44,448 nt of DNA from positions 1-44,448 of the IMG/VR virus record IMGVR_UViG_3300038673_000329, one strand, 5' to 3'. Below the pieces are notes generated by a model that was not told the DNA's origin, searched no databases, and saw only the letters and a list, made by a program, of their open reading frames with translations. How positions within the stretch are numbered: position 1 is the first letter of the stretch; the number at the start of each line of letters is the position of its first letter. Made by a program: the position numbers and the translations under genes. Shown one piece after another: positions 5,043 to 29,478 of the stretch. Source of the stretch: a virus (lineage: Duplodnaviria > Caudoviricetes).

Positions 5043-5966
5043 ATGAAACATATGGGCGCACTAATTAGTCCGGTTGATGATCGCGACTATTCGGTCAGAG
5101 TCCAACCGGATATGGCTGCACCGTCCACGTGGGTGTCGCCGCGTATACCCAATATAGGCGATCAAAAAGTAAATAACTGTGTAAATTGGGCATTGTCATA
5201 TGCCCAAGAAATTGTAACTGGACGGGTGTTCTCCAAAGGCTATATTTATGGCGAGCGCCTTGAAACCGATTATCAGGGTGAGGGTATGTATCCGCATCAA
5301 GCGGCGGCTGCTGTTGTCCGGTGTGGTAATGTATTGTTGCCGGATTGGAATTATGAGCATGAAGTGAAATCGGCTCAGCGTAAAGTATGGGACAAAGCTG
5401 ATGTACTTCGTCCTAAAGCCGGCAAGAACAAAGCCGTGCAGTACGCGCGCTTGCATAACATGCAAGAAGTTATGGCCGCGCGCATGGCCGGTTTGGGTGT
5501 CACGATTAGCGTGCGCGTCGAAAGCTATAAGACCAATGCACGCGGCGTATTTAAGTGCACATCAGCCTCTAAAGGCAATCACGCTATGTGTATCTTGGAT
5601 TGGTCTGATAAGTTCCCAGAACCATGGAGAGTGCTTAATTCCTGGGGCACTAAGTGGGGTCTCAAGGGATTGTGTTATATCAGTGATGAGGATATATGGC
5701 GCAACAATAACGTATATGCCTATGAATTTATCGAGAATAAGGAATCGCCCGTACGTCGCACACTCAGGAGCGGTATGAAGGGTGACGACGTTAAGCTTCT
5801 TCAGACCAAGTTAATTGCACTTGGAATCGACCTCGGTCCGTGGGGCGCTGACGGTTCCTTTGGTAATGCGACCAAGACCGCCGTAAAGCTCTTTCAGGTA
5901 CGTAACGGTCTCAAGATGGACGGCATTGTCGGACCGGCTACATGGAGGGTGTTAGACAATGTTTGA
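5043..5966 (+). CDS. Papain-like (C1) cysteine peptidase with C-terminal peptidoglycan-binding domain; putative endolysin
   Basis: GDQxxxxC, NHAM and LNSWGTKWGxxG catalytic motifs; LRSGMKGDDVKLLQ...DGIVGPATW PG_binding_1-type repeat. Confidence 0.85.
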   Translation: MKHMGALISPVDDRDYSVRVQPDMAAPSTWVSPRIPNIGDQKVNNCVNWALSYAQEIVTGRVFSKGYIYGERLETDYQGEGMYPHQAAAAVVRCGNVLLPDWNYEHEVKSAQRKVWDKADVLRPKAGKNKAVQYARLHNMQEVMAARMAGLGVTISVRVESYKTNARGVFKCTSASKGNHAMCILDWSDKFPEPWRVLNSWGTKWGLKGLCYISDEDIWRNNNVYAYEFIENKESPVRRTLRSGMKGDDVKLLQTKLIALGIDLGPWGADGSFGNATKTAVKLFQVRNGLKMDGIVGPATWRVLDNV

Positions 5967-6675
5967 GTATGTTGAAAATTTAAACCTCGATTGGCATGAG
6001 GGCAGAGTAAAACGTACCGTAACCGACCACATACAAATACATCACACTGTGGGCGATTACGATACGCCGGAAAGATGGACTGCGCTTCACAACAAGCGCG
6101 TCGCATCATCTGACTATCGTGGCATTGAATATTCGTTCGGCATTAACAGCGAAGGTCGTGTATTCGAGGGACGCGGGCTTGAATATAAGCATGGCGGTGT
6201 AATGAACAGCTTGACCAACAATGCCAATGATCGTTCTGTATCTGTTGTATTTATTGGCGACATGCGTAAGCCGGAGCTGCCGTCCGATAAGCAAATGCAG
6301 GCGGGTGTTATACTTGTTCGCGATTTACTTGCGTATTATAAACTGGCTATAACAGATGTGTATGGCCACAATGAGATCAAACCATACCGCCCCGGTGACA
6401 GTCGATACACACTATGCCCTGTAATCGATATGGATGACTTCCGACTACGCCTGGATGCGGGCATTACATTTCCCTCCGGATACTACTATGGGGGTGCGTC
6501 TTATGTAAATCTGCGGACGGCGCCCGATACATTAGGTACCATCATCGGCCGGGTAAATAAAAATGATGACGTCATCGTACTCGATATTGATGGCGGCTGG
6601 GCGGAAGTCATCAAACACAACGACGTACCCATGAAACGCGGTTACTGCATCTCAACATGGTTAAAAAGGCGGTAA
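5959..6675 (+). CDS. N-acetylmuramoyl-L-alanine amidase (Amidase_2) with SH3b domain; endolysin
   Basis: IQIHHT, EGRG, GHNE...CP zinc motifs; VNLRTAP...GWAEV SH3b. Confidence 0.9.
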   Translation: MFEYVENLNLDWHEGRVKRTVTDHIQIHHTVGDYDTPERWTALHNKRVASSDYRGIEYSFGINSEGRVFEGRGLEYKHGGVMNSLTNNANDRSVSVVFIGDMRKPELPSDKQMQAGVILVRDLLAYYKLAITDVYGHNEIKPYRPGDSRYTLCPVIDMDDFRLRLDAGITFPSGYYYGGASYVNLRTAPDTLGTIIGRVNKNDDVIVLDIDGGWAEVIKHNDVPMKRGYCISTWLKRR

Positions 6676-7145: not shown

Positions 7146-7562
7146 TTATTCTTTACGTTCTTTCCGCTCATAGAATCGCAAGTGTAGATATGCGTCTTTG
7201 GTATGTTCAGTGCACGTACATCTACTCTTCAAGTCCGCCCAACGGGCGTCTAAGCCGCCACTATACTTTTTGTCGCTGGGCGCTTGCTCGATGTATGGTA
7301 TCGATTCTCTCACGCACAAGTAACGTATTACACCTATTACTTCACACGGATAGAACGTATTCCATGACAAGGATTGTGCCATGCCTGGATATAGATTGAA
7401 TCGCTCAAATATAACAAGGTCTGGTGCATATTGAATAAATAGCATCGCGACGTCCAAATGATTACGCACAGCCGTTCCGCCGATTACTTCACCTGTATCA
7501 TTGCGATACACCCATCCCGTATTTTCACCCGGGTCAAATACTAATACACGCTGCATCGTCAT
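7146..7562 (-). CDS. RuvC-like Holliday junction resolvase
   Basis: VLVFDPGENTGW, VIFE and HTKDA RNase-H-fold acidic motifs. Confidence 0.75.
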   Translation of the reverse strand: MTMQRVLVFDPGENTGWVYRNDTGEVIGGTAVRNHLDVAMLFIQYAPDLVIFERFNLYPGMAQSLSWNTFYPCEVIGVIRYLCVRESIPYIEQAPSDKKYSGGLDARWADLKSRCTCTEHTKDAYLHLRFYERKERKE

Positions 7563-8904
7563 CCTCCACTCCTAATACTTTTTTGATGTCTTCTGATTTC
7601 TGTAAGTTAATGTTACCAACGTACTTATCGATGCTGCCAACACATTGCAGAACATATATGTCCACAATATCATTCTGTCCTATGCGATACAGCCTGTCTT
7701 CAGCTTGTTCGTTAAGAGCTGGTGACCAGTCGCGATCTAGAAATACGCCGATATGACACACTGACTGTAATCCGTCTACACCTGTTCCCAACGCTCCTAT
7801 CGTGCCCGCGAGTACTTGAACAGGATTGGAAGTAAACTGGGCCAGCGCAGCCTGGCGACTTGTCATATCCAAATCACCCGTATAAGCTACGCACGATATT
7901 CCTCTCTGGTTCAAGTACTGCTTTAGCAGCTGCACGGCGTTAGCAAATCGGCTAAACACGACCAGCTTAATGTCCGGATTGTCGTCGCACATTTCTGCGA
8001 TCCACGAGAACTTGATGCTCTCTGGACATTCGAAGATCTGTGGCTCGGTGGTGATTTGTTGTAGTCGAATCATCTTGGACATACCATTGAGTATCGTACA
8101 GTTATCGGGCAGTTCGTCAAGCAGTAGCTTCTTGGCGTTATCATACAGCGTTTGCTGTTTGGAGCCCATCTTCAGAGTGACTGCGTTCACGCGCTTGATT
8201 GTTGGCAATCGCAGGTCCGGATTGTTAATGGTGTACGGCGCCAGCAAGTCAACCAGTGCCTTCTGCTTTTCCAGATCGTGCGTCAAGCCTTTCACTGAGC
8301 GGCCAAACGGGCCGAGCTCGGAGTGGCAGTACTCGTTCACGAAGCCCCAGTAGCTATTGCCGGCTTCCTTAACACCCAGCCAATGTAGTATGCTGAACAA
8401 ATCATCTGGCTTGTTCAAGATCGGCGTTCCGGACAAACCAACGCGACGCTTAGCTGGGAGCTTCTCGAAGGCACGTGTCACCTTGGCATCCCGATTCTTT
8501 ATGCGGTGTATCTCGTCACATATGATAACGTCCCACTGAAACTGTAGATACTGCTGAAGTCGCGGACCGGGATGAAAGAACTTATACTTGCCCTTCTTCT
8601 CGAATGTGCCGTTAGCTAGATGCTCATGATTCACAATTACAATCATCTCAGGCGCCCGGGCATCAATTCTCTTAGGCAGGACAATACACTCCCTGCCTAG
8701 CCATTCGCCGATAGCCGCCTGCCACTGGTACATGATCGTTTTGGGACACGATATCAGTACACGCTTGGCCTGCCACATATCAATCATGGCAATGCCCTCT
8801 ACGGTTTTACCGTACCCCATCCGGTTGGCGTTTAGCACACTGCTCAAGTTTCGCGCAAACTCGACGTCGCGCTTTTGATAGTCATACAATTTCCTCTTTA
8901 GCAC
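7534..8904 (-). CDS. SNF2-family helicase
   Basis: YQ motif, MGYGKT, DEIH, SGTP, QAEDRLYRIGQ. Confidence 0.92.
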   Translation of the reverse strand: MLKRKLYDYQKRDVEFARNLSSVLNANRMGYGKTVEGIAMIDMWQAKRVLISCPKTIMYQWQAAIGEWLGRECIVLPKRIDARAPEMIVIVNHEHLANGTFEKKGKYKFFHPGPRLQQYLQFQWDVIICDEIHRIKNRDAKVTRAFEKLPAKRRVGLSGTPILNKPDDLFSILHWLGVKEAGNSYWGFVNEYCHSELGPFGRSVKGLTHDLEKQKALVDLLAPYTINNPDLRLPTIKRVNAVTLKMGSKQQTLYDNAKKLLLDELPDNCTILNGMSKMIRLQQITTEPQIFECPESIKFSWIAEMCDDNPDIKLVVFSRFANAVQLLKQYLNQRGISCVAYTGDLDMTSRQAALAQFTSNPVQVLAGTIGALGTGVDGLQSVCHIGVFLDRDWSPALNEQAEDRLYRIGQNDIVDIYVLQCVGSIDKYVGNINLQKSEDIKKVLGVEDDDAACISI

Positions 8905-10984
8905 GTTTCCAAGCCTCCCAACTCTCTAACTTACCCCACGAATATCCCACTTCTGCATCTGCCTTAAATGGCACATTGCAGTTCTCGAGTTGCTTTTCGG
9001 GCTGTTCCTTCATAATCCGAGTACCGACCTCGACTATCCAGTTAACAATATCTGGCCTGTCTGTACATTCGAATATAATTGAGTCATGCACGTTGTTGAT
9101 AATCTTGATGTCGTCTCGATACGGCCCACTCATTATTTCATCATGAATGTCCATAAGGCTTATCAGCGTCAAATCTGTTGCGATACTGGATACGGGGAAG
9201 TTGATGGATTCATTTTGTATGTTGTTGATGTTCGAGGCGGTGATAACGAAATGCCGCATACGGCCGAATGCCGATATACATTCTTGTCCGCGTTGTGGCT
9301 TGAGTCGCGTTTCCTGAATCCACTTCTTGACCTGCGGCATTGGTGCGTACCACTTTGCAATGATACCATTTGCCTCGCTGATTGAGCATCCAAATTCGTC
9401 CATCAAGGATGCCGCACCGCGCCCATATGCTATACCGAAATTAATAGTCTTTGCCTGGACGCGTTGCTCCTTTGTAAAGTTCGGTCCAAACATGTCCGTC
9501 GCGACAGCATCATGCAAATCACGGCCTTCGACGAATACGTTTATCAACCAAGGATCTTGTGACAGATAAGCCAGTGCACGAAGTTCTGCCTGCGAGTAAT
9601 CCAACTGAACAAGTATCTTACCTGGTGCGGCCTTAAAGATGTTCTTGATCTTCTTATCGCGTGGGATGTTCTGCATGTTCGGCTCAGAGCAGCTAAGTCG
9701 GCCAGTCTCAGTTCCGTGCAGGTTAAACGTAGCATGAACACGCCCGTCGCTACACATCGCATCTCTAATGCCGAACACATACGTATCGAGTTGTTTGTGA
9801 AGCTTACGAGACTGCATGAGCGCCTTGATAAAAGCCTGTTCCCTATATGACTTGCCCAGCGCTTCAAGCGCATCGGCGTCTGTGCATGTGACATCCTCAC
9901 CAGTTACCTTACTCAGTAACCACTTTAATTGCGCCGGTGACTTCAAGTTAAATCGGTTCGGCATCGACTTCGCCCCCGTATCGCGAACATACTGCACAGC
10001 ATTCCAATATGCATTGGCGGCCGCTTCTACGATATCATCAGCCTCATCGCACGCCTCCTGCAACTCAATGTGTATCGCATTTAAGTGTTCCTGGTCTACC
10101 ATAAATCCGTTCGACTCAAGATGCGTGTATACATTGGATGCACGTATCAAATTGCCGTATGCGCGCATGGCGCTAGGACGTGCAATCTTACGGAAAAGAT
10201 GCAGAAGCATAAACGTCGCGGTACAGTCCATTGCGAGGTATGGGAGCATTATCTCGAGCGGGATGTCATCGTATCGAAAGTCGGCTATCTTTATCTTGAG
10301 TGCACGTGCCCGCTTCTTCTTGTACTCGTCCAGCTCATCGTCCCACTGCGGTGCTTGAAGATAAAGGGGAGCCAATACCTTCAAGCCATGGGTTCCCTTC
10401 TTTTCGTTGATGCCGACATAATGTAACAGCATAGTATCTTCATCAACACGTGCATGCACGCCGCACACCCATCGTAGCCGACCAATGTCGAACTTACCAT
10501 TGTGCCACAGGAACTGCATTTGCGAAACCGGGGTCTTGAACAGCTTGTTTAACGCGGCGCAAACCGGAGGCGTGAAGATTCCAATGATTCCAACCTCTCT
10601 AGTATCGGCCGTCTTGATGCCTAAGAGTAGCATGTTCTGATTGTCCCACCCCGTGTGGCTACATTCAATATCACAAGCTACCACTCCGCGATAACTTCCC
10701 AGCCTGTTCAAGTACGCGATAGCGTCCGCCTCTGTGCGGTATAATTTGTACGGGATATTCCAAAAGTCTTTTCCACTCGCTACAATCGATAAATCGACAT
10801 GTGCGAATGCCATAATGGACTCACAGTATCGATCGACCTCACGGGGATAACTGCGCAGATATTTTTCAGGGGGAACGTATAAAACGTTCCCCACCGATCT
10901 ATACCAGCGCTCGCGGTTCATCGTATCCTTGACACTACGGTCGTCTGGGAAGTCTGGACACACGGCCTTGATAATGTTATTCAT
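8882..10984 (-). CDS. polA: Family A DNA polymerase with 3'-5' exonuclease domain
   Basis: DIE, HNGKFD, YxxxD exonuclease motifs; TGRLS, DYSQAELR, KTINFGIAYG, VHDS polymerase motifs. Confidence 0.95.
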   Translation of the reverse strand: MNNIIKAVCPDFPDDRSVKDTMNRERWYRSVGNVLYVPPEKYLRSYPREVDRYCESIMAFAHVDLSIVASGKDFWNIPYKLYRTEADAIAYLNRLGSYRGVVACDIECSHTGWDNQNMLLLGIKTADTREVGIIGIFTPPVCAALNKLFKTPVSQMQFLWHNGKFDIGRLRWVCGVHARVDEDTMLLHYVGINEKKGTHGLKVLAPLYLQAPQWDDELDEYKKKRARALKIKIADFRYDDIPLEIMLPYLAMDCTATFMLLHLFRKIARPSAMRAYGNLIRASNVYTHLESNGFMVDQEHLNAIHIELQEACDEADDIVEAAANAYWNAVQYVRDTGAKSMPNRFNLKSPAQLKWLLSKVTGEDVTCTDADALEALGKSYREQAFIKALMQSRKLHKQLDTYVFGIRDAMCSDGRVHATFNLHGTETGRLSCSEPNMQNIPRDKKIKNIFKAAPGKILVQLDYSQAELRALAYLSQDPWLINVFVEGRDLHDAVATDMFGPNFTKEQRVQAKTINFGIAYGRGAASLMDEFGCSISEANGIIAKWYAPMPQVKKWIQETRLKPQRGQECISAFGRMRHFVITASNINNIQNESINFPVSSIATDLTLISLMDIHDEIMSGPYRDDIKIINNVHDSIIFECTDRPDIVNWIVEVGTRIMKEQPEKQLENCNVPFKADAEVGYSWGKLESWEAWKRAKEEIV

Positions 10985-11733
10985 GACCAGTAAGCCTCCT
11001 TGAATCGGCAGTTGATGAATGTTTGCCAGTCGACACTGTCGTTTACCAAATCAACTGTAAACCCGTCCGGGCGTGTACCGGTTATAGGACTGATGCTATG
11101 CTTTGCAAAGAACGTCGCTAAACAGGTATCGACAGACCGGATGTCCTCAGGATACTGATATTGCACCAGCTCATTATAATTGTACCATAATCCGAGAAGA
11201 TGTATCTGTGGCGGCGTGTCTACATTCCAGCACATTTCGCGCCACAAATACTCAAAGTACGGCCGGCCTTTCGGATGCAGCTTAGCGCATACCTTAGGAA
11301 TGCCGATAACATCTAGCCCTAATCCTAGCATGCGTCTAAAACATTCTGCAAACTCTCGTGGGTCATTACCTTGGCACACACCCATGTACTTGAACGGCCT
11401 CTCGAGGTTCAGATCCTGCTCGATCTTCTTACACTCTCTAAGTGCTTTCTCGGTACTGGCAAGTGTTGCGGGTCCGTTGCGAAAAACATCAGGCAGTATA
11501 ATCTCGTCCGCATTAATGGCCAGTGCGGCATTAACCAAACGAGTAGTAGACACAGCGTCACCGAGTTCAATCAGGGAATTGTCCAAAATCTTATACCCTT
11601 TGAAGTAACGAGCGAAGTTGCTGTAGCCGACAGAGTGCTCAACTAGGTGAGTAAGAAACATCCCCATCGGCGCATCTTTGATGTAGCCTAGGTTCGCAAT
11701 GGGCACGATATCGATGACTTGCATCATGGCCAC
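10981..11733 (-). CDS. Short TGT/DpdA-like TIM-barrel base-exchange protein
   Basis: Ordered motifs ILDNS, IILPD, MGVCQG, VIGIP, IHLLG, RSVDT parallel the TGT/DpdA DSG, catalytic D, GxxQG, G, HxLG and FD motifs; adjacent to QueC and YhhQ. Confidence 0.7.
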   Translation of the reverse strand: MAMMQVIDIVPIANLGYIKDAPMGMFLTHLVEHSVGYSNFARYFKGYKILDNSLIELGDAVSTTRLVNAALAINADEIILPDVFRNGPATLASTEKALRECKKIEQDLNLERPFKYMGVCQGNDPREFAECFRRMLGLGLDVIGIPKVCAKLHPKGRPYFEYLWREMCWNVDTPPQIHLLGLWYNYNELVQYQYPEDIRSVDTCLATFFAKHSISPITGTRPDGFTVDLVNDSVDWQTFINCRFKEAYWS

Positions 11734-12113
11734 TCCCTCCTTTGCCAGGGCATCTTCAAGTCACGTTCCGGCTCATCAGGCTGATATGTTTCATAGTGCA
11801 TCAGCGCCGCTATGTTCCATATAGCCGCAGCCAGATGGTCCTCAGTGCGATCGCCGGCAAGCCAACGGTAGAGATGCCTAATGGTGGAGCTAAAACACCG
11901 CGAATCTTTGAGGCCCTTTTCCCAGTTTCGGTTCGCATACTTGTTTGCACCCCGTTCGTAGTGCAGCGCCAGTCGATGAAGCATGATGGGCGGAATCAAT
12001 TCATAGCAGCCTTTCTCTTCGGCAGGTTCACGCATGCCGCCAGTACGTTCCAGTTCACGCTTGCCGCCATCAGGAAGCGGTGTTGCCTTGGCATCATCTC
12101 TTTTGATAATCAT
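11724..12113 (-). CDS. dATP/dGTP diphosphohydrolase-domain protein (DUF5664-like)
   Basis: KGxYELIP, GANKYANRNWEKG, RH, EDHLAAAIWN. Confidence 0.85.
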   Translation of the reverse strand: MIIKRDDAKATPLPDGGKRELERTGGMREPAEEKGCYELIPPIMLHRLALHYERGANKYANRNWEKGLKDSRCFSSTIRHLYRWLAGDRTEDHLAAAIWNIAALMHYETYQPDEPERDLKMPWQRREWP

Positions 12114-12463
12114 TCTATGGGTACCTCCAGTTCATAGAATTTGTCACCATACTGCTCAGGATAACGTTCACGAAGTTTTACGTAATTCATGCGAATCACG
12201 TCGTTCAGTGATATACCGAGCAGATGGCACAGATGGGCCAAGTACCAAATCACATCGCCGACTTCCTCAACAAACCGCTCAGTTGGGACGTCCTTACCAT
12301 GAAGCAACTTTTTTACGAGGTCCGCTACCTCACCCGATTCACCACATATGCCCAATGCGGCGTTGAACAGCCTTTTCTCCCGGTTGGCGGATGGGTTTGT
12401 ATACCCATCCGCTACGAACTCCTGATAGTTAGTTAAAGAGACTATACTCTTCTTTACTGTCAT
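12110..12463 (-). CDS. MazG-like nucleoside triphosphate pyrophosphohydrolase
   Basis: LGICGESGEVADLVKK, EEVGDVIWY, NxxKLRERYP; start placed at the ATG downstream of GGAGG. Confidence 0.9.
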   Translation of the reverse strand: MTVKKSIVSLTNYQEFVADGYTNPSANREKRLFNAALGICGESGEVADLVKKLLHGKDVPTERFVEEVGDVIWYLAHLCHLLGISLNDVIRMNYVKLRERYPEQYGDKFYELEVPIE

Positions 12464-13097
12464 AAACGTCCAAACCCTCCTCTTTCTTAACTTTCTTGAC
12501 AACGGCACTGGTCAGCGGCAGAACTACTATTTCATACACTGTCTTCATAATAACCTGAGTGAGTATCATGGGGACCATGGCGCCCGCCGGAAGAACGCCA
12601 ATGAACGCTATGGTAATGAATATACACGAGTCGACTAGCTCGCCGACTACTGTTGAGACGATGGCGCGCACGCCGAAGTACTTACCGCCCATCATGACCT
12701 TCATTTTACTGATGACCGCGGCGTTTAGATATGAACCACATACATACGCAACCAAGCTAGCACCAAGTAATCTCGGCGTGCTTCCCAACGCTGTCTTGAA
12801 CGCTTCAGCATCCGCAAACCACACAGGCGCCGCAATGTGTATCGCCGCCTGGAAGTATAACACCATCAACAGATTCATACCAAAGCCGAGCCACATAATG
12901 TACCGCGCCGTCTTGAACCCGTACACCTCAGCGATGACATCGCTCATGATGTACGCGATCGGGAACACGAGCACGCCGGCGGTAATCTCCCACGGACCGA
13001 TCACAATCATCCGCGAGGCGATTACATTGGATATGAGCAAACAGGTGATGAACAGAACGCCAAAGAACATGAGTAACGGAGTAATCGTTTTCTTCAT
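12429..13097 (-). CDS. yhhQ: Queuosine precursor transporter (YhhQ/VUT family)
   Basis: Multi-TM protein with SNVIASR, FPIAYIMSDVIAEVYG, STVVGELVDSCIFITIAF, KTVYE. Confidence 0.92.
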   Translation of the reverse strand: MKKTITPLLMFFGVLFITCLLISNVIASRMIVIGPWEITAGVLVFPIAYIMSDVIAEVYGFKTARYIMWLGFGMNLLMVLYFQAAIHIAAPVWFADAEAFKTALGSTPRLLGASLVAYVCGSYLNAAVISKMKVMMGGKYFGVRAIVSTVVGELVDSCIFITIAFIGVLPAGAMVPMILTQVIMKTVYEIVVLPLTSAVVKKVKKEEGLDVYDSKEEYSLFN

Positions 13098-13113
13098 AGG
13101 TGTGTTTCCTTTC

Positions 13114-13782
13114 TTACCGAGGCTCAAGGCCATTTTTTATGAACGCATTTCTGCGGTCAATGCACGTTCCACACGCGCCGCAGGGCGCACTGTTGCCCTC
13201 ATAGCAGCTCCAGGTATGGCTAAAGTCTACACCGCACCGCACGCCGATTTTTACGATATCCGCTTTGGACATCCTAATGAAGGGCGCATATAACGTCACT
13301 AAACCGGATGTGCCATGCCGTATGGCCTGATTCATAGCCTCAGCGAAGGATATCGAGCAATCGGGATAAGCGCTTCCGGCTGCGTCATCGGCATGCGCAG
13401 CATAGGCTACCTGATTACAACCTATTTGAAGCGCGACCGCTGTTGCGTATGAAAGCAGTAGACCATTGCGGAACGGTACATATGTGCTCACGGGGCGCCC
13501 ATTAGCCTGCTTAAAATACGCTTCGTGCACAATGGGCGTTTTACTGTCCATTAGGAGAGAGCTAACATCCGGATTGAACGTGAACACAGTGCCCAGATCA
13601 ACCTCCATCAACGGCATGTTCATCTTGCTGGCCTGCCACTTTGCGCAATCAACCTCTTTGGTATGCTTTTGGCCGTAGTACGCGAACAATCCCACATTAG
13701 CTGTTCTTGGGCCGTCCATCATGTGCGCTAGCACAGTACTATCCAACCCACCACTCATAAGTATTAGTGTTCTGTCCTGCAT
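13114..13782 (-). CDS. queC: 7-cyano-7-deazaguanine synthase
   Basis: SGGLDS PP-loop, YGQKH, YVPFRN, YPDC, WSCYx6CxxCxxC zinc site. Confidence 0.93.
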   Translation of the reverse strand: MQDRTLILMSGGLDSTVLAHMMDGPRTANVGLFAYYGQKHTKEVDCAKWQASKMNMPLMEVDLGTVFTFNPDVSSLLMDSKTPIVHEAYFKQANGRPVSTYVPFRNGLLLSYATAVALQIGCNQVAYAAHADDAAGSAYPDCSISFAEAMNQAIRHGTSGLVTLYAPFIRMSKADIVKIGVRCGVDFSHTWSCYEGNSAPCGACGTCIDRRNAFIKNGLEPR

Positions 13783-14022: not shown

Positions 14023-16740
14023 TCATTCACCCCCGATCTGTTTCGTGATTTCAATTAGCATCTTATCAGGTGAATAAGCACCCGAGTTGCCCAACCTGAC
14101 CAAGCCACGACGTAGTAGCTCTGACAGTAACTTAGAAGCCTCGGTCTTATCGATGCCGAGTATCTCCTGCATCTGGCCGCCTCTGAACTGGTTGGAGGAC
14201 AGTAGCACGCGCAGCGCGGGGTACATACTAATCTGTGCTTTGATGAACGTTACGTTCTGAACACGCTCCCGCTGTACACGCTTACTCTCCTTGATGAACC
14301 CGGCGTAGTCCAATGTCGGCTTGCCGAATGTTGTACGCAGGAATGTGATGGCATCATTGACTTCTTTATCCGTCACCTCAACGCAGCGCTCAACAATCCG
14401 GCCCTTTAGTATTGCACATGCACATGATATACGTAAAATCTTCTCGTGTACGGCAACACCTACGACCAACGGCCCACCGCCAAACTCCTCTTCAAGTTCG
14501 CGCGCGGCTTGCTTAACAGCTTCAACCGCATCGCGCTCCAGAATGATATCATCCACAGGTACTGACCATGCATACGCTACAAGATCCATCATCTTGGATA
14601 TGATATCATCCATGTTGACGGGCTCTTCAACGTCTTGAAACGAATTAACATCAACATCATCGCGAGCCGCCGCAATGAGTACATCATAGCGTGCTTGGTC
14701 CTCAGCTATGGGTATGAATTCCTGAAACGCACCATAACCCTTCCAGTAGAACTCATCAATGTTACGCCCACTTCTCGGGTTGGATAACCAGATAATTCGT
14801 GTCCGCGCTCGGGCCTCCCCCTTAGCGATTTTGTTTATTGTGACCGCACCACTAGATCGGGTAGCCGACAGTTCCTTGATGTCGTCTACACTCAAACCAG
14901 AGGCTTCATCAACCAGCAGCAAACCCTTATCGTTAAGCGGTATTGCACCCCACGTGATAACCCACGAGTCACCAAATCTTTGTACGCCGCCAATGACGCC
15001 CGTACGCTTAGCATTCTCTCCATTGATATACGAGCCCATGCCAAGTGTACGCACAAACCGCTGAGCCATCTGCGACTTACCTGTTCGCGTATCGCCGATG
15101 ACCATTGTATCCAACCAACCCTTAATAATTCCTGAGCGCCATTTAATCTCTGTCACCGACAAGTAAGTGAGCAGTAATGCACCGAACAAATCTAGGCGTC
15201 CCTCTATACCAAGGCGCGCACGCCATAGATTATAATGCTCTTCAAGTACCGCCCAAATGTCCTCCCCAGCGTGTTTATTTGCAATGGCCTGGAAGAACAA
15301 TATCGTCTCTTTCGGTATCGACAGTCCGGCAACACTTGCCTGTGGTGTCGCGGCCTTACGTATCACATAATAGTTCTGCTGTGATCGCGGATCTGACACG
15401 CGGCAGGCTTCGAAGTCATACTTTACCGTTGGAAGCAGGCGCCCTTCATCGTACAGGAACAAACCGTAGCGATGATCAAACGATGCTTCCTCGACACCAT
15501 CCATGAACGATGCCGACTCCTGGAATAGAATTTTCTGAACATTTGTGAATGCGACTGGCTCGGCAATGATTGACTTACAACCGAACAACTTCTGTAAGTA
15601 CGTGTCCTGTGTAGTATCAGGCGACTCTACAAACAGAACCATCTGCCTCGGCTCCACATCAAGTTCAATTGGGACACGTGTAGATCCAATGTTACATCGC
15701 TTTTCACACTTCGAGTTCTTACACAGCAGCTTCAACTTAGTCGGAATAGTGTACGTTTTAGGATCGGCGCCCGTTATGCACATGTTGTTCAGTTGAATCC
15801 AGCTGTTCAAGTTCTCGACGAACTCACTCTTCGTGAGCGTCGTAGTACCAACCACAGCGGTATTCGCTGCGTCGGGACCGGCCATAGCGGACTCTGTCCA
15901 GGGTTCGAAATCCAAGCTATGGTACTTGATCCAGAAATCCGTGAAGTCTTTTTCTGGAAGCCGGACTCTTGTAATGTCCTTTGTGTACGGTCGCAAACCT
16001 GTAATGTATCGCTGTGCATTCTTATCGCCGGCCGCATCATTGTCTGTCATTATCACAACTTTGCGCCCAGCAAACAGATCAAGCTCAGCGAACGGAAGCG
16101 TCGTGCCTCCCGTTCCCGTCATTGCATTCAATCCGCATGACAACGCTACCAAGCAATCTTTTTCACCCTCTACGATGTAAATAGGCTCGCTGGGGTCCGC
16201 ATCAAGAAGAACGCTGTACGGATATAACCGACATTCATTAAGACCCTTCATGCCTATGACCTTCGCATTGTTACTCTCCACAATACGCTTACTCGGTGGC
16301 AAGTACTTGCGAACGTTAACAAGCATCCCGGTTCTTGAACGGATTGGTATAGTCACACGTATGTCATCCCAGCCGAGCTGATATTTTTCAATGATCTCGT
16401 CGGTTATGCCGAAACCATGTAGCTCATCAAGTGCGGCAGGTCTGCGCTGTAGTGCAGCCATACATTTCTCAATGTACTCCTCTGATGGAAACATCCACGC
16501 GCCCGTCTTATGGTATCGATGACACGCGTTTACTGCAATACCTCTTGGCACATCATAAAACTCGGTAATGAACTCTACGTGATGCCCGCCCTTACCACAT
16601 CCATGACAAAACCAGGCATCCGTCTCAACATTTACCGTGAAGGATGCGTTGGTGTCGTTATGCATCGGACATATTCCGTAGATCTGATTTCCCGATGTTT
16701 TACTATCATCGAAATCGATGAATTGATCGTAGAAACCCAA
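14023..16740 (-). CDS. DnaG-type primase fused to MCM-like AAA+ helicase
   Basis: CPMH...CHGC zinc finger, TOPRIM (VEGEKD, DND), Cys cluster, GDTRTGKSQ Walker A, LLVDEAS Walker B, SNP sensor, ARYD arginine finger; TTG start with GAGGGGG RBS. Confidence 0.85.
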   Translation of the reverse strand: MGFYDQFIDFDDSKTSGNQIYGICPMHNDTNASFTVNVETDAWFCHGCGKGGHHVEFITEFYDVPRGIAVNACHRYHKTGAWMFPSEEYIEKCMAALQRRPAALDELHGFGITDEIIEKYQLGWDDIRVTIPIRSRTGMLVNVRKYLPPSKRIVESNNAKVIGMKGLNECRLYPYSVLLDADPSEPIYIVEGEKDCLVALSCGLNAMTGTGGTTLPFAELDLFAGRKVVIMTDNDAAGDKNAQRYITGLRPYTKDITRVRLPEKDFTDFWIKYHSLDFEPWTESAMAGPDAANTAVVGTTTLTKSEFVENLNSWIQLNNMCITGADPKTYTIPTKLKLLCKNSKCEKRCNIGSTRVPIELDVEPRQMVLFVESPDTTQDTYLQKLFGCKSIIAEPVAFTNVQKILFQESASFMDGVEEASFDHRYGLFLYDEGRLLPTVKYDFEACRVSDPRSQQNYYVIRKAATPQASVAGLSIPKETILFFQAIANKHAGEDIWAVLEEHYNLWRARLGIEGRLDLFGALLLTYLSVTEIKWRSGIIKGWLDTMVIGDTRTGKSQMAQRFVRTLGMGSYINGENAKRTGVIGGVQRFGDSWVITWGAIPLNDKGLLLVDEASGLSVDDIKELSATRSSGAVTINKIAKGEARARTRIIWLSNPRSGRNIDEFYWKGYGAFQEFIPIAEDQARYDVLIAAARDDVDVNSFQDVEEPVNMDDIISKMMDLVAYAWSVPVDDIILERDAVEAVKQAARELEEEFGGGPLVVGVAVHEKILRISCACAILKGRIVERCVEVTDKEVNDAITFLRTTFGKPTLDYAGFIKESKRVQRERVQNVTFIKAQISMYPALRVLLSSNQFRGGQMQEILGIDKTEASKLLSELLRRGLVRLGNSGAYSPDKMLIEITKQIGGE

Positions 16741-21044: not shown

Positions 21045-21227
21045 TCATTGCTTTTCCACCCACTCTCCGTTAATCCTGCGCATAGAATAATCACGCAAAT
21101 TAATTCTGTCGCAAGCGATAACCGACATGCAGTCATATGTCACAACAATCTCGACCCGCACATTTTCGCCGTATATCTCTCGGATGGCATTGTGGATATT
21201 GTTCATTTTTCGTTCTTTATCAGTCAT
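21045..21227 (-). CDS. Hypothetical protein
   Basis: GGAGG RBS then MTDKERK; ATGA overlap. Confidence 0.6.
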   Translation of the reverse strand: MTDKERKMNNIHNAIREIYGENVRVEIVVTYDCMSVIACDRINLRDYSMRRINGEWVEKQ

Positions 21228-21628
21228 GTTAATTCCTCCTTCGCTGGCTGTTGGAGCCAATCAATCACGCCTTTTATACAAGTGTCATGGTCAAGCCCTT
21301 TGGTGGTACAATTATTTTGATAGGCACAATGCCCGTAACAGTATTCAGACCCGTTTCCGAGGTAAAAAATGTAATTCGCTAACTCCTCATCCGTCATGCC
21401 CCGCATACGGTCGGCGTTGCTTACCATTTTCGTGGCGTCAGGCAAATGGTCGACACGGCGGTTCCATGCGGCGATGGCTTGCTCTTTTGTGTCCCCCGCC
21501 GTTTCCGCAATGCAATCAATACACAGCACCCGCCAGCTCGTTTCGTTTTTATCCCAAAACGATTCCATCTCGTCTATTTGGATGTCGTTTCCCCCGCAAA
21601 ACGGGCATGGCAGTAATTTGTCAGTCAT
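21224..21628 (-). CDS. Lar-family (restriction alleviation) zinc-ribbon protein
   Basis: LLPCPFCGG...CIDC...AIAAWNRR. Confidence 0.8.
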   Translation of the reverse strand: MTDKLLPCPFCGGNDIQIDEMESFWDKNETSWRVLCIDCIAETAGDTKEQAIAAWNRRVDHLPDATKMVSNADRMRGMTDEELANYIFYLGNGSEYCYGHCAYQNNCTTKGLDHDTCIKGVIDWLQQPAKEELT

Positions 21629-22020
21629 GGCTCTACCTCCAACCGCTTGCCGCACATGGGGCAGAAGCGCGCATTTGGCAATTCGCCGCTGATTTGCGTC
21701 TGCCAAAACTTAAAATTATCATCGCAATACTCGCACCCCTTGCTTCTCTCTGCCTGTTCGCGGAGGGAGGCGACAACAGCATCATCAGTCACGCCATCTG
21801 GGATGGGGCAGGATTTGCATGTGCTTCGCCCCGCCTCCCGCAGCGCGGAAAGGTCGGCCTCTTGCTGCTCGATCAGGGCGGCGGCTTCGGTTAGAGTTTC
21901 AGTATAGGCGCACAATTCATGATTGCCTCGGTTCGCAGGGCAGTCTTTGCAATTTCCGCGCACCCCTGAATGTTGACTGGCGTGGCACCGCAGCGCCTTT
22001 ACAATTTCGTTAGCGTTCAT
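21625..22020 (-). CDS. Zinc-finger hypothetical phage protein
   Basis: EIVKALRC, CKDCP, CEYC, FCPMCGKRL. Confidence 0.7.
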   Translation of the reverse strand: MNANEIVKALRCHASQHSGVRGNCKDCPANRGNHELCAYTETLTEAAALIEQQEADLSALREAGRSTCKSCPIPDGVTDDAVVASLREQAERSKGCEYCDDNFKFWQTQISGELPNARFCPMCGKRLEVEP

Positions 22021-22105: not shown

Positions 22106-22702
22106 TTATGCTTCCGCGTCGGTCTGCTCGGCAGTAGCAGTAGCAGTAGCAGCAAGGCGCGCACGCACCTCAGCCTCGGCCTTGGCCACACCGGACGGAG
22201 GTACCATCTTCTGGTTCAAGGTCCAGTTGCTCATGCTGGTGAGCATCAGACTGTCTTCCGGCTGGAGCACAACACTGGCATCGTTCACAAATACGGCCTT
22301 GTAGATAACATCGGACTTCTTGATGATGACCGTATCGCCCACATTGATTTCGAACCTACGCTTGGGGATGCTCTTGCCACCGCCAACATCGATCATGTCC
22401 TTGCTGCTGCCACCGGCCGAAGGACCTCTCCGGCGATCACGGGTGGACAGATCGGCATCAATTTCGAGTGCCGCGTTGATCACATCTTCAAGAGTCATGA
22501 AACCCTTGGGGTTGTCCTCACCAATTCGCTTCTCGACGAAACGTGTAATCGCACCCCAGTTATAAACCTTGGCGTCATACACTTCGCCGGCAACAGGCTG
22601 TTTAGCCACACTGTAGATTCGGGTTTGCTGTACGTCCAGCGCTTCAGCAATAGCGCGAAGACTGGGCTGCGCAACTCCCATACGTTCGATGGTGTTCAAC
22701 AT
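22106..22702 (-). CDS. Paralogous family member 1 (HTH-like N-terminus, beta-barrel-like C-terminus)
   Basis: SLRAIAEAL...KQPVAGEVYD...NWGA; TTG start with AAGGAGG RBS; own promoter and terminator. Confidence 0.75.
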   Translation of the reverse strand: MLNTIERMGVAQPSLRAIAEALDVQQTRIYSVAKQPVAGEVYDAKVYNWGAITRFVEKRIGEDNPKGFMTLEDVINAALEIDADLSTRDRRRGPSAGGSSKDMIDVGGGKSIPKRRFEINVGDTVIIKKSDVIYKAVFVNDASVVLQPEDSLMLTSMSNWTLNQKMVPPSGVAKAEAEVRARLAATATATAEQTDAEA

Positions 22703-23547: not shown

Positions 23548-24171
23548 TTATGCACCCTCTCCTTCAGTATCAACTGCTCCCTCCGGGTCCGCATGACCAA
23601 CCACGGTACCGCCACTGTGCTTAAATGTCGCATTAGACATTACACGCGGCTTAGACGTACCATCCGCCATGATGACCAAGTGTGTCGGCGTGGCAATATG
23701 CACACGATAAGGTGGGAACTTTGTAACTGAGCCGTCGGCATTCTCAACAGGACGAAGCGTCACGATATCGTTAACCTTAACATCCAATAGTACCTCGGGC
23801 GCATCAGTCCCTGTAGACAACAGCTTATCAACCTTAAGATCCACGAGCGCATCGATACCGTTCTTACGGACAAGAACCTGAACCATCGCACCGAAGTTCA
23901 CATTATCCGGATCGTACATCTGTCCGGACACTGGAGCTTTGCTCGCCTTCAACAACGCTGTGTAGTTAGCACCCGTCGCGAACGCGAGCTGCTTGATCGA
24001 GGCGTTCTCATCCCCGAAGTACTCCTGCAGGACTGCTGTCGCCTCAGCGATTGCCTGATCCCGGTATTCCTGCTCAGCAACCTGCTCGGGATCTTCTTGG
24101 CGCGGTTCGGGATCTACCGGAGCCTGTTCCAATTGAGTGCCCTGTGCCATCCTCTTTTTGTCTTTTGCCAT
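23548..24171 (-). CDS. Paralogous family member 2
   Basis: SIKQLAFAT...KAPVSGQMYDPDNVNFGA...KPRVMSNATFKHSG; AAGGAG RBS. Confidence 0.75.
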   Translation of the reverse strand: MAKDKKRMAQGTQLEQAPVDPEPRQEDPEQVAEQEYRDQAIAEATAVLQEYFGDENASIKQLAFATGANYTALLKASKAPVSGQMYDPDNVNFGAMVQVLVRKNGIDALVDLKVDKLLSTGTDAPEVLLDVKVNDIVTLRPVENADGSVTKFPPYRVHIATPTHLVIMADGTSKPRVMSNATFKHSGGTVVGHADPEGAVDTEGEGA

Positions 24172-28771: not shown

Positions 28772-29206
28772 TTATACCTCCCTCGGTCCTTGGTGTTCGA
28801 AGGTATCCAGGTTCATGACTCGGGGCTTCGTCTTGCCGATCTCCATGAAGACCAGGTGATCTGCGGTGGCCATCAGGATCTCGAACTGTCCGGGGAAGTT
28901 ACGGAACTCGACTGTCTGTCCTACCTGCCAGCTGACGTTCTTCGCGCGGGGCGGCTTCTTACCGGCTGCCAGCTCGTCGAAGTTCGGAAGCTCCAGGTCC
29001 GGTCCGTGCTTCCGGATCAGTGCGTCTGCGACTGCGCTGTAGTTGACGCTATCCGGGTCGTACGGTACTCCGGGTACCGGCTTGCGGCTCTCGCGGAGGA
29101 GGACCTGGTAGGTCGCATCGGTGGCGAGTGCCAGCTGGCGGAGGCTCACTTCGGGGTGCGTCTCGAAGCCGGTCTGGAGGAGGGCAGCGATCTCATTGCG
29201 CTTCAT
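28772..29206 (-). CDS. Paralogous family member 3
   Basis: SLRQLALAT...RKPVPGVPYDPDSVNYSA...KPRVMNLDTFEHQG; AAAGGA RBS before MKRNEIAALL. Confidence 0.75.
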   Translation of the reverse strand: MKRNEIAALLQTGFETHPEVSLRQLALATDATYQVLLRESRKPVPGVPYDPDSVNYSAVADALIRKHGPDLELPNFDELAAGKKPPRAKNVSWQVGQTVEFRNFPGQFEILMATADHLVFMEIGKTKPRVMNLDTFEHQGPREV

Positions 29207-29478
29207 AGTGGTGTCCTTTCTGAGCTCTAGGCTCTGTGCCACACTTGGCAGTGGCCTGCCGATTTATCGTTCGCTCTGCGAGCGTAGCGATCGCTGTGTT
29301 TGTAGCTATTCAGTTGTCAAGGTCCGCCGGTGCCGGGGCTGGGCCCCCGCCCTGGGGTTGTACAGGGCGCTCGCGCTGCTGCTATCCTCGCGGCGTTCCG
29401 ATTCTTTCTCAGCTACGTAAGTAGTACGGATTATCTAACTCGCTCGGAGCCGGCAGCGCTGTTCATGCCGGGTTCTCG

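Follow-up and report, generated by a model that had tools for sequence, protein, structure and literature searches.

The locus examined here raises the question of which substrate is used by a guanine transglycosylase of about 250 amino acids, encoded directly before a phage DNA polymerase. The window, by which we mean the whole stretch of 44,448 bases that was analysed, is a viral record estimated to be 100% complete, with terminase, SPP1-type portal and scaffold genes. The first-pass annotation had described a TGT-like barrel without the zinc-binding module and had placed it in a divergent DpdA-like subfamily that may exchange bases on free nucleotides.

The gene and its block in the phage genome

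The gene belongs to a minus-strand block (Table 1) whose members follow one another in the order listed, with a 96-aa ORF between the primase-MCM helicase and QueC. ATGA overlaps are found at three junctions, MazG–DUF5664, DUF5664–dpdA3 and dpdA3–PolA, the last of which confirms the previously noted coupling to PolA. A complex prediction for DpdA3 and PolA scored 0.19 (mark 0.32), which counts neither for nor against binding. As called, the ORF has a GTG start and encodes 250 aa. The true start is probably the ATG at 11727, giving 248 aa, because it is closely preceded by GGAGG, shares an ATGA with the stop of DUF5664 upstream, and is the start in database copies.

Table 1. Genes of the dpdA3 block, with positions in the window
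Feature	Position	Strand	Basis and remarks
Primase-MCM helicase, heads conserved block	14023..16740	-	Domain search; order same in relatives
QueC (7-cyano-7-deazaguanine synthase family)	13114..13782	-	PF06508, E 1.4e-49
YhhQ/Vut_1 family transporter, predicted 7-deazaguanine-precursor importer	12429..13133	-	PF02592, E 6e-47
MazG-like NTP pyrophosphohydrolase	12110..12508	-	Pfam MazG, E 7e-9; PHROG 229; stop overlaps DUF5664 start (ATGA)
DUF5664/PF18909 stand-alone, predicted dNTP pyrophosphohydrolase (dNTP to dNMP)	11724..12113	-	Pfam, E 1.5e-19; PHROG 801
DpdA3-family guanine transglycosylase (TGT barrel)	10981..11733	-	Homology, HMM, tree, predicted fold; predicted catalytic Asp51 and Asp202
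Family A DNA polymerase (PolA) with 3'-5' exonuclease	8882..10984	-	PF00476, PF01612; start overlaps dpdA3 stop (ATGA)
SNF2 helicase, after PolA in conserved block	7534..8904	-	Domain search; gene order in relatives

The target thus lies beside two 7-deazaguanine genes of the same block, QueC and YhhQ, the latter described as a preQ0 transporter (PMC6884629). A six-frame search of the window (805 segments, local profiles) detected no FolE, QueD, QueE or nucleotide kinase, and a PHROG scan of 31 small ORFs in it detected no kinase. The DUF5664 gene fills a slot held by kinases in relatives and was considered as a kinase analogue. This was dropped, as its profile has no similarity to DUF3310 (E 0.26), no fold match was obtained at E≤0.001, and pyrophosphohydrolase activity has been published for a stand-alone member (PMC12884076).

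We infer a host among the Bacillota because the closest cultured relatives of the target occur in Bacillus and Weizmannia phages. GTDB scans found no close relative and five distant ones in MAG contigs. A contig from an Anaeromicropila MAG (L207) carries a distant DpdA3-like gene with YhhQ upstream and no recognised Que gene, kinase or polymerase within 6 kb.

Elsewhere in the window, a Lar-like restriction alleviation protein (21224-21706, minus strand; PHROG 599, E 2.5e-13) offers a second possible anti-restriction function. The observed-to-expected ratio of 6-mer palindromes in the window is 1.07 for those containing G and 0.95 for AT-only ones, values for which no control genome was compared. 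Over the whole window, GATC (185 observed, 235 expected) and CATG (194, 236 expected) are under-represented, which does not hold for most other palindromes of 4 or 6 bases. On the plus strand, a GT2 glycosyltransferase with TPR repeats (966-2036) is flanked by tail genes with collagen repeats and probably has virion proteins as its substrates, and two tandem cell-wall enzymes follow at 5043-5966 (C1-type peptidase with a peptidoglycan-binding domain) and 5959-6675 (amidase with SH3). Three unannotated minus-strand ORFs without a Pfam match (22106-22702, 23548-24171 and 28772-29242) look alike by eye and share K-P-V-x-G-x-x-Y-D; they are possibly paralogous DNA-binding proteins.

Motifs, predicted fold and family

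The catalytic-type motifs were all found in the TGT order given by the first-pass annotation, with DNS in place of DSG: D51-N52-S53, L80-P81-D82, Q121-G122, H178-L-L-G181 and S200-V-D202-T203. The zinc site is absent, as had been stated, with 7 scattered Cys and no CxCxxC; the tail beyond D202, previously put at about 45 aa, measures 48 aa. Homologues number 385 at E≤0.001 (671 candidates). D51, N52, S53, D82, G122, HLLG, S200 and D202 are invariant across 117 aligned homologues, and D51, N52, D82, R157, H178, G181 and D202 are invariant in 22 diverse members that include published DpdA3 proteins. The C-terminal zinc subdomain (CxCxxC...H) of E. coli TGT is found in none of the 120 homologues listed, whose lengths are 212-263 aa, and in none of the 40 DpdA3 representatives described below. 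As these 120 sequences are all short and zinc-less, the architecture is a stable one, and the target is not a truncated protein.

Pfam and PDB sequence searches gave no match for the protein or for its 117-sequence alignment. Its AlphaFold model (pLDDT 95) retrieved TGT entries in all rows among the Foldseek matches listed. A structure search independent of Foldseek placed arcTGT first (Z 15.1, rmsd 3.4, 228 aligned), followed by bacterial DpdA 7UI4 (Z 15.0), TGT (Z 14.7) and Cap10 of Cap10-CdnD (Z 13.9). Z alone is a modest discriminator, since an unrelated barrel, PdxJ, came close behind at Z 13.6. Among viral structures, the DpdA3 of phiST ranks second (TM 0.76). A weak hhalign alignment to E. 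coli TGT (E 0.064) sets Q121-G122, HLLG and D202 on Q187-G188, YLMG and D264; D51 and D82 are paired with TGT D102 and D156 by motif order and secondary structure (strand ends) only. On this pairing, Asn52 would occupy the position of TGT S103 in Z. mobilis numbering. The pocket and catalytic residues reported for TGT in that numbering are D102, S103, D156, Q203, G230 and D280 (PMC5699537). As modelled, the target is a TGT-superfamily (beta/alpha)8 barrel with its best structural matches among TGTs, in agreement with the initial description; PdxJ is not the top match.

Sequence comparison almost certainly assigns the target to DpdA3. Among the 7 GenBank phage records found with tblastn is that of Bacillus phage BSP7 (36% identity, E 9e-21). 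The gene matched in BSP7, AYJ76173.1, appears as DpdA3 in Data S1 of Cui et al. 2023, where the subfamily is defined by PSI-BLAST homology to phiST CGPG_00065 together with listed members (PMC10516641). Used as a query, AYJ76173.1 recovers the DpdA3 proteins of phiST, CP220 and immuto_2-6A. An HMM built from the query's clade alone scored BSP7 at 145, immuto at 66, phiST at 60 and CP220 at 51 bits, against 7.5 bits for 9g DpdA1 and -1.3 bits for HVTV-1 DpdA4; E. coli TGT was not reported with this HMM. DpdA3 loci searched with a DpdA1 profile, and the reverse, gave no match at E 1e-5. In a 51-row tree, a quick IQ-TREE search of DpdA3 and DpdA1 sequences with SH-aLRT support only, the query falls in a 47-row group with 4 published DpdA3, apart from 4 DpdA1 (support 100). 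The phylogenetic comparison suggested at the outset thus groups the target with DpdA3 and separates it from DpdA1. A new subfamily was rejected, because the group is already described as DpdA3 (Data S1 listing, clade HMM); the description as a divergent DpdA-like TGT barrel stands. The known DpdA3 family thereby gains a new member, whose gene cluster is of the salvage type.

The published DpdA3 proteins (BSP7 AYJ76173.1, phiST CGPG_00065, gp056 of Campylobacter phage CP220 and gp206 of Flavobacterium phage immuto_2-6A) share with the target the DN motif, HxxG and the final Asp. They are 258-264 aa long, lack CxCxxC and have tails of 53-57 aa, which puts the target in the same zinc-less length class, and in BSP7 the gene lies directly before PolA, as it does here. 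They differ from the target in sequence (20-36% identity) and in genome content: the target genome lacks FolE, QueD, QueE and a kinase and carries YhhQ, QueC, MazG and DUF5664. YhhQ is listed in none of the DpdA3 rows of Data S1 (Cui 2023, PMC10516641). Phage DpdA1 (9g, CAjan), bacterial DpdA and tRNA TGT have the same barrel and catalytic layout. However, they carry DSG instead of DNS, with a tail of ~100 aa in 9g and E. coli TGT, and their substrates are polynucleotides, which they modify in part; no kinase neighbours the DpdA1 loci that were examined.

The fourth-ranked structural match, Cap10, together with the fact that YhhQ and QueC also feed tRNA queuosine, could suggest that the target modifies host tRNA, or a protein as the TGT-like Cap10 does, instead of the building blocks of phage DNA. 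This is highly improbable, as the gene is embedded in a DNA replication block and 7-deazaguanine has been reported in the DNA of three DpdA3 phages (PMC10516641).

Neighbours of dpdA3 across the family

From 100 DpdA3 loci in IMG/VR (for the second search, the best 80 of 321 matches), dereplication to below 60% identity left 40 representatives; 35 loci were counted after five with short flanks were dropped. The DpdA1 control comprised 85 loci (second search, best 80 of 314), reduced to 22 representatives below 72% identity. The PHROG scan covered neighbours up to three ORFs away, except for genes already labelled Que, Fol, YhhQ or PolA, proteins above 450 aa and an SNF2 of 450 aa.

A kinase-like gene lies at most three ORFs away in 25 of the 35 dereplicated DpdA3 loci (5 of the gp1.7/DUF3310 type, 20 of the P-loop type), in contrast to none of the 22 9g-type DpdA1 loci, a control that represents a single 9g-like clade. 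Fisher p-values overstate the case for this link, since related loci are not independent. No kinase was found within three genes in 8 more diverse annotated DpdA1 phages; in the DpdA1 phage S0112, a MazG gene is part of the cluster, four genes off. Within 6 kb, a kinase is found at 26/35 DpdA3 and 1/22 DpdA1 loci and a MazG-type pyrophosphatase at 11/35 and 2/22, the latter not specific to DpdA3; both counts are biased, as most of the training sequences for the profiles came from DpdA3 neighbourhoods.

On several branches of the tree the slot is occupied by kinases of two folds that are unrelated to each other, gp1.7/DUF3310-like and P-loop. In the query's clade, the gene immediately upstream of dpdA3 encodes a DUF3310 protein, a P-loop kinase or DUF5664, the last in the target window and in its nearest relative (L003/L210/L211). 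T7 gp1.7 matches the PHROG families to which the DUF3310 neighbours were assigned; dGMP and dTMP are its reported phosphorylation substrates (PMC11897194). Among the published DpdA3 phages, a kinase-like gene is adjacent in CP220, BSP7 and Youna2 and three genes off in immuto; the neighbours scanned in phiST gave no kinase match. The dpdA3 neighbourhoods of immuto and phiST contain a pyrophosphatase (MazG in phiST). YhhQ is found alone in some relatives (L003, L008, L012).

Several gene arrangements were observed in the course of the survey. A 218-aa protein, P0150, joins DUF3310 (gp1.7-like) and DUF5664, the families that alternate upstream of dpdA3. At L018:8001-9119 (also in L235, L236 and L238), DpdA3 is fused to a C-terminal PF05014 domain in a protein of 372 aa; PF05014, the nucleoside 2-deoxyribosyltransferase family, includes the dNMP transferase DmtZ. 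No DpdA3 fusion of 477-2000 aa was found among 7406 candidates, which is weak evidence; fusions of 300-476 aa fall outside this range. In Arthrobacter phage Sonali, gp81 (L200:493-1110) is a second gene, of 205 aa, annotated as queuine tRNA-ribosyltransferase and located six genes upstream of that phage's DpdA1.

The substrate of the exchange

The inference from a missing zinc module to a free-nucleotide substrate was rejected. CxCxxC is absent from 22/22 9g-type DpdA1 representatives, as from the DpdA3 ones, and the DpdA1 of Cellulophaga phage phi3ST:2, which we take to be close to phiSM, is zinc-less and only 240 aa long. In phiSM, only about 1% of G is reported to be modified. Zinc loss and short length therefore do not reveal the substrate, since both also occur in DpdA1, whose members act on DNA. 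Nor does the role given to the zinc subdomain carry the inference: in TGT it is described as a dimerisation module, and the DNA-modifying DpdA1 of phage 9g is already without two of the four zinc ligands (PMC5699537). Free-nucleotide exchange itself is a live possibility, and the conclusion may hold although the argument from the missing module fails. Net charge was dropped as a DNA-binding marker, being uninformative: the median per 100 aa, -3.3 for DpdA3 and -2.6 for DpdA1, barely separates them.

We propose, leaning slightly towards this reading, that the target swaps guanine for 7-deazaguanine on free dGMP, before replication. It is favoured over exchange in DNA by the gene neighbourhood, by complete G replacement and by the precedents of DUF5664, DmtZ and the dZ phages. 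Replacement of G is reported as complete in all three chemically tested DpdA3 phages, and free ADG nucleoside was found in the cytoplasm of CP220-infected cells (Cui 2023, PMC10516641). Stand-alone DUF5664 is reported to turn dATP, dUTP and dGTP into dNMP; the characterised enzyme prefers dATP tenfold, and the family also occurs in phages with canonical DNA (PMC12884076). DmtZ, a dZ-phage enzyme, performs base exchange on dNMP, moving the deoxyribose-5-phosphate between bases (PMC12884076). The dZ phages are reported to obtain dGMP through a diphosphohydrolase and to use the host GMP kinase.

The dZ clusters (PurZ or DmtZ, with DUF5664, MazZ or DutZ, and DpoZ) resemble the present block in how they work: a base-changing enzyme and dNTP pyrophosphohydrolases are combined with a family A polymerase, and host kinases finish the triphosphate. 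They differ in the base, 2-aminoadenine, and in the unrelated enzyme fold, PurA or NDT as opposed to the TGT barrel. Furthermore, nucleotide-level action is demonstrated for dZ, whereas for DpdA3 we infer it from gene context.

In the published model, DpdA3 exchanges guanine in new DNA, after or alongside replication, possibly riding with the coupled polymerase, and the kinases and pyrophosphatases nearby are ordinary nucleotide-pool genes. We regard this as possible, though less than probable. It agrees with the gene order, as the gene right after dpdA3 encodes PolA or a clamp at most loci in the query's clade and DpdA1 likewise precedes a clamp gene (within 6 kb in 21/22 loci), with the existence of the short zinc-less DpdA1 of phi3ST:2, and with a target genome that has no kinase. 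However, it leaves unexplained the kinase link, with its two unrelated folds, and the free ADG nucleoside in infected cells. It also sits uneasily with complete base replacement, which in the other cases known to us (5hmC, 5hmU, dU, dZ) is achieved at the nucleotide level. Every DpdA tested is reported to insert its base into DNA, and the same is proposed for all subfamilies; tests of DpdA3 in E. coli failed, and the authors conclude that insertion is post-replicative, in a main text from which the word 'kinase' is absent (Cui 2023, PMC10516641). A modified-dGTP route was once proposed for Campylobacter phages, before DpdA3 was known (Hutinet 2019, PMC6884629). No published proposal of nucleotide-level action for DpdA3 was found in a literature search that was thin on subscription journals.

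If exchange takes place on dGMP, YhhQ would import a precursor and/or QueC would turn host or imported CDG into preQ0 (or ADG). DUF5664 and/or MazG would then cut dGTP to dGMP, which would supply the substrate and lower normal dGTP. The target would form a covalent deoxyribose-5-phosphate intermediate via Asp202 and accept the 7-deazaguanine, with Asp51 as general acid/base. The product would be raised to the triphosphate by host kinases, or by phage kinases in most relatives, and the coupled PolA would incorporate the modified G into phage DNA, where it would likely protect against restriction.

Another free substrate (deoxyguanosine, dGDP or dGTP), or attachment of the imported base to a sugar-phosphate that a partner hydrolase sets free, is improbable. 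The fusion of DpdA3 to a nucleoside 2-deoxyribosyltransferase-family domain in one lineage (L018, L235, L236, L238) would fit such chemistry, as would the match of P-loop neighbours to Pfam deoxynucleoside kinase. Conversely, going by the gp1.7-like and thymidylate-kinase-like labels, the product would be a monophosphate, and DUF5664 and MazG make dNMP.

Exchange on dGMP has evidence against it as well. The target phage has no recognisable kinase, and no kinase was found within three ORFs in 10/35 DpdA3 loci or within 6 kb in 9/35. Moreover, phage replication modules bring kinases and polymerases together in any case. Substitution in the target phage may be partial, since FolE, QueD and QueE are missing, and a phage whose precursor genes are limited to YhhQ and QueC, or to YhhQ as in L003, L008 and L012, may plausibly modify its DNA in part or draw on the pathway of its host.

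The wider proposal is that DpdA3 is a dGMP transglycosylase producing dZ-like, pre-replicative 7-deaza-G genomes. The target phage would be a minimal salvage version, with base import (YhhQ, QueC), cutting of dGTP (DUF5664, MazG), the swap, host kinases and a dedicated PolA. We consider this proposal evenly balanced. If true, it would account for the full replacement of G, for the kinase link and for the failure of tests with the single gene. A free deoxynucleotide would be a new substrate class for the TGT fold, shifted from polynucleotides, and the family would allow 7-deaza-dGTP analogues and fully substituted DNA to be made enzymatically.
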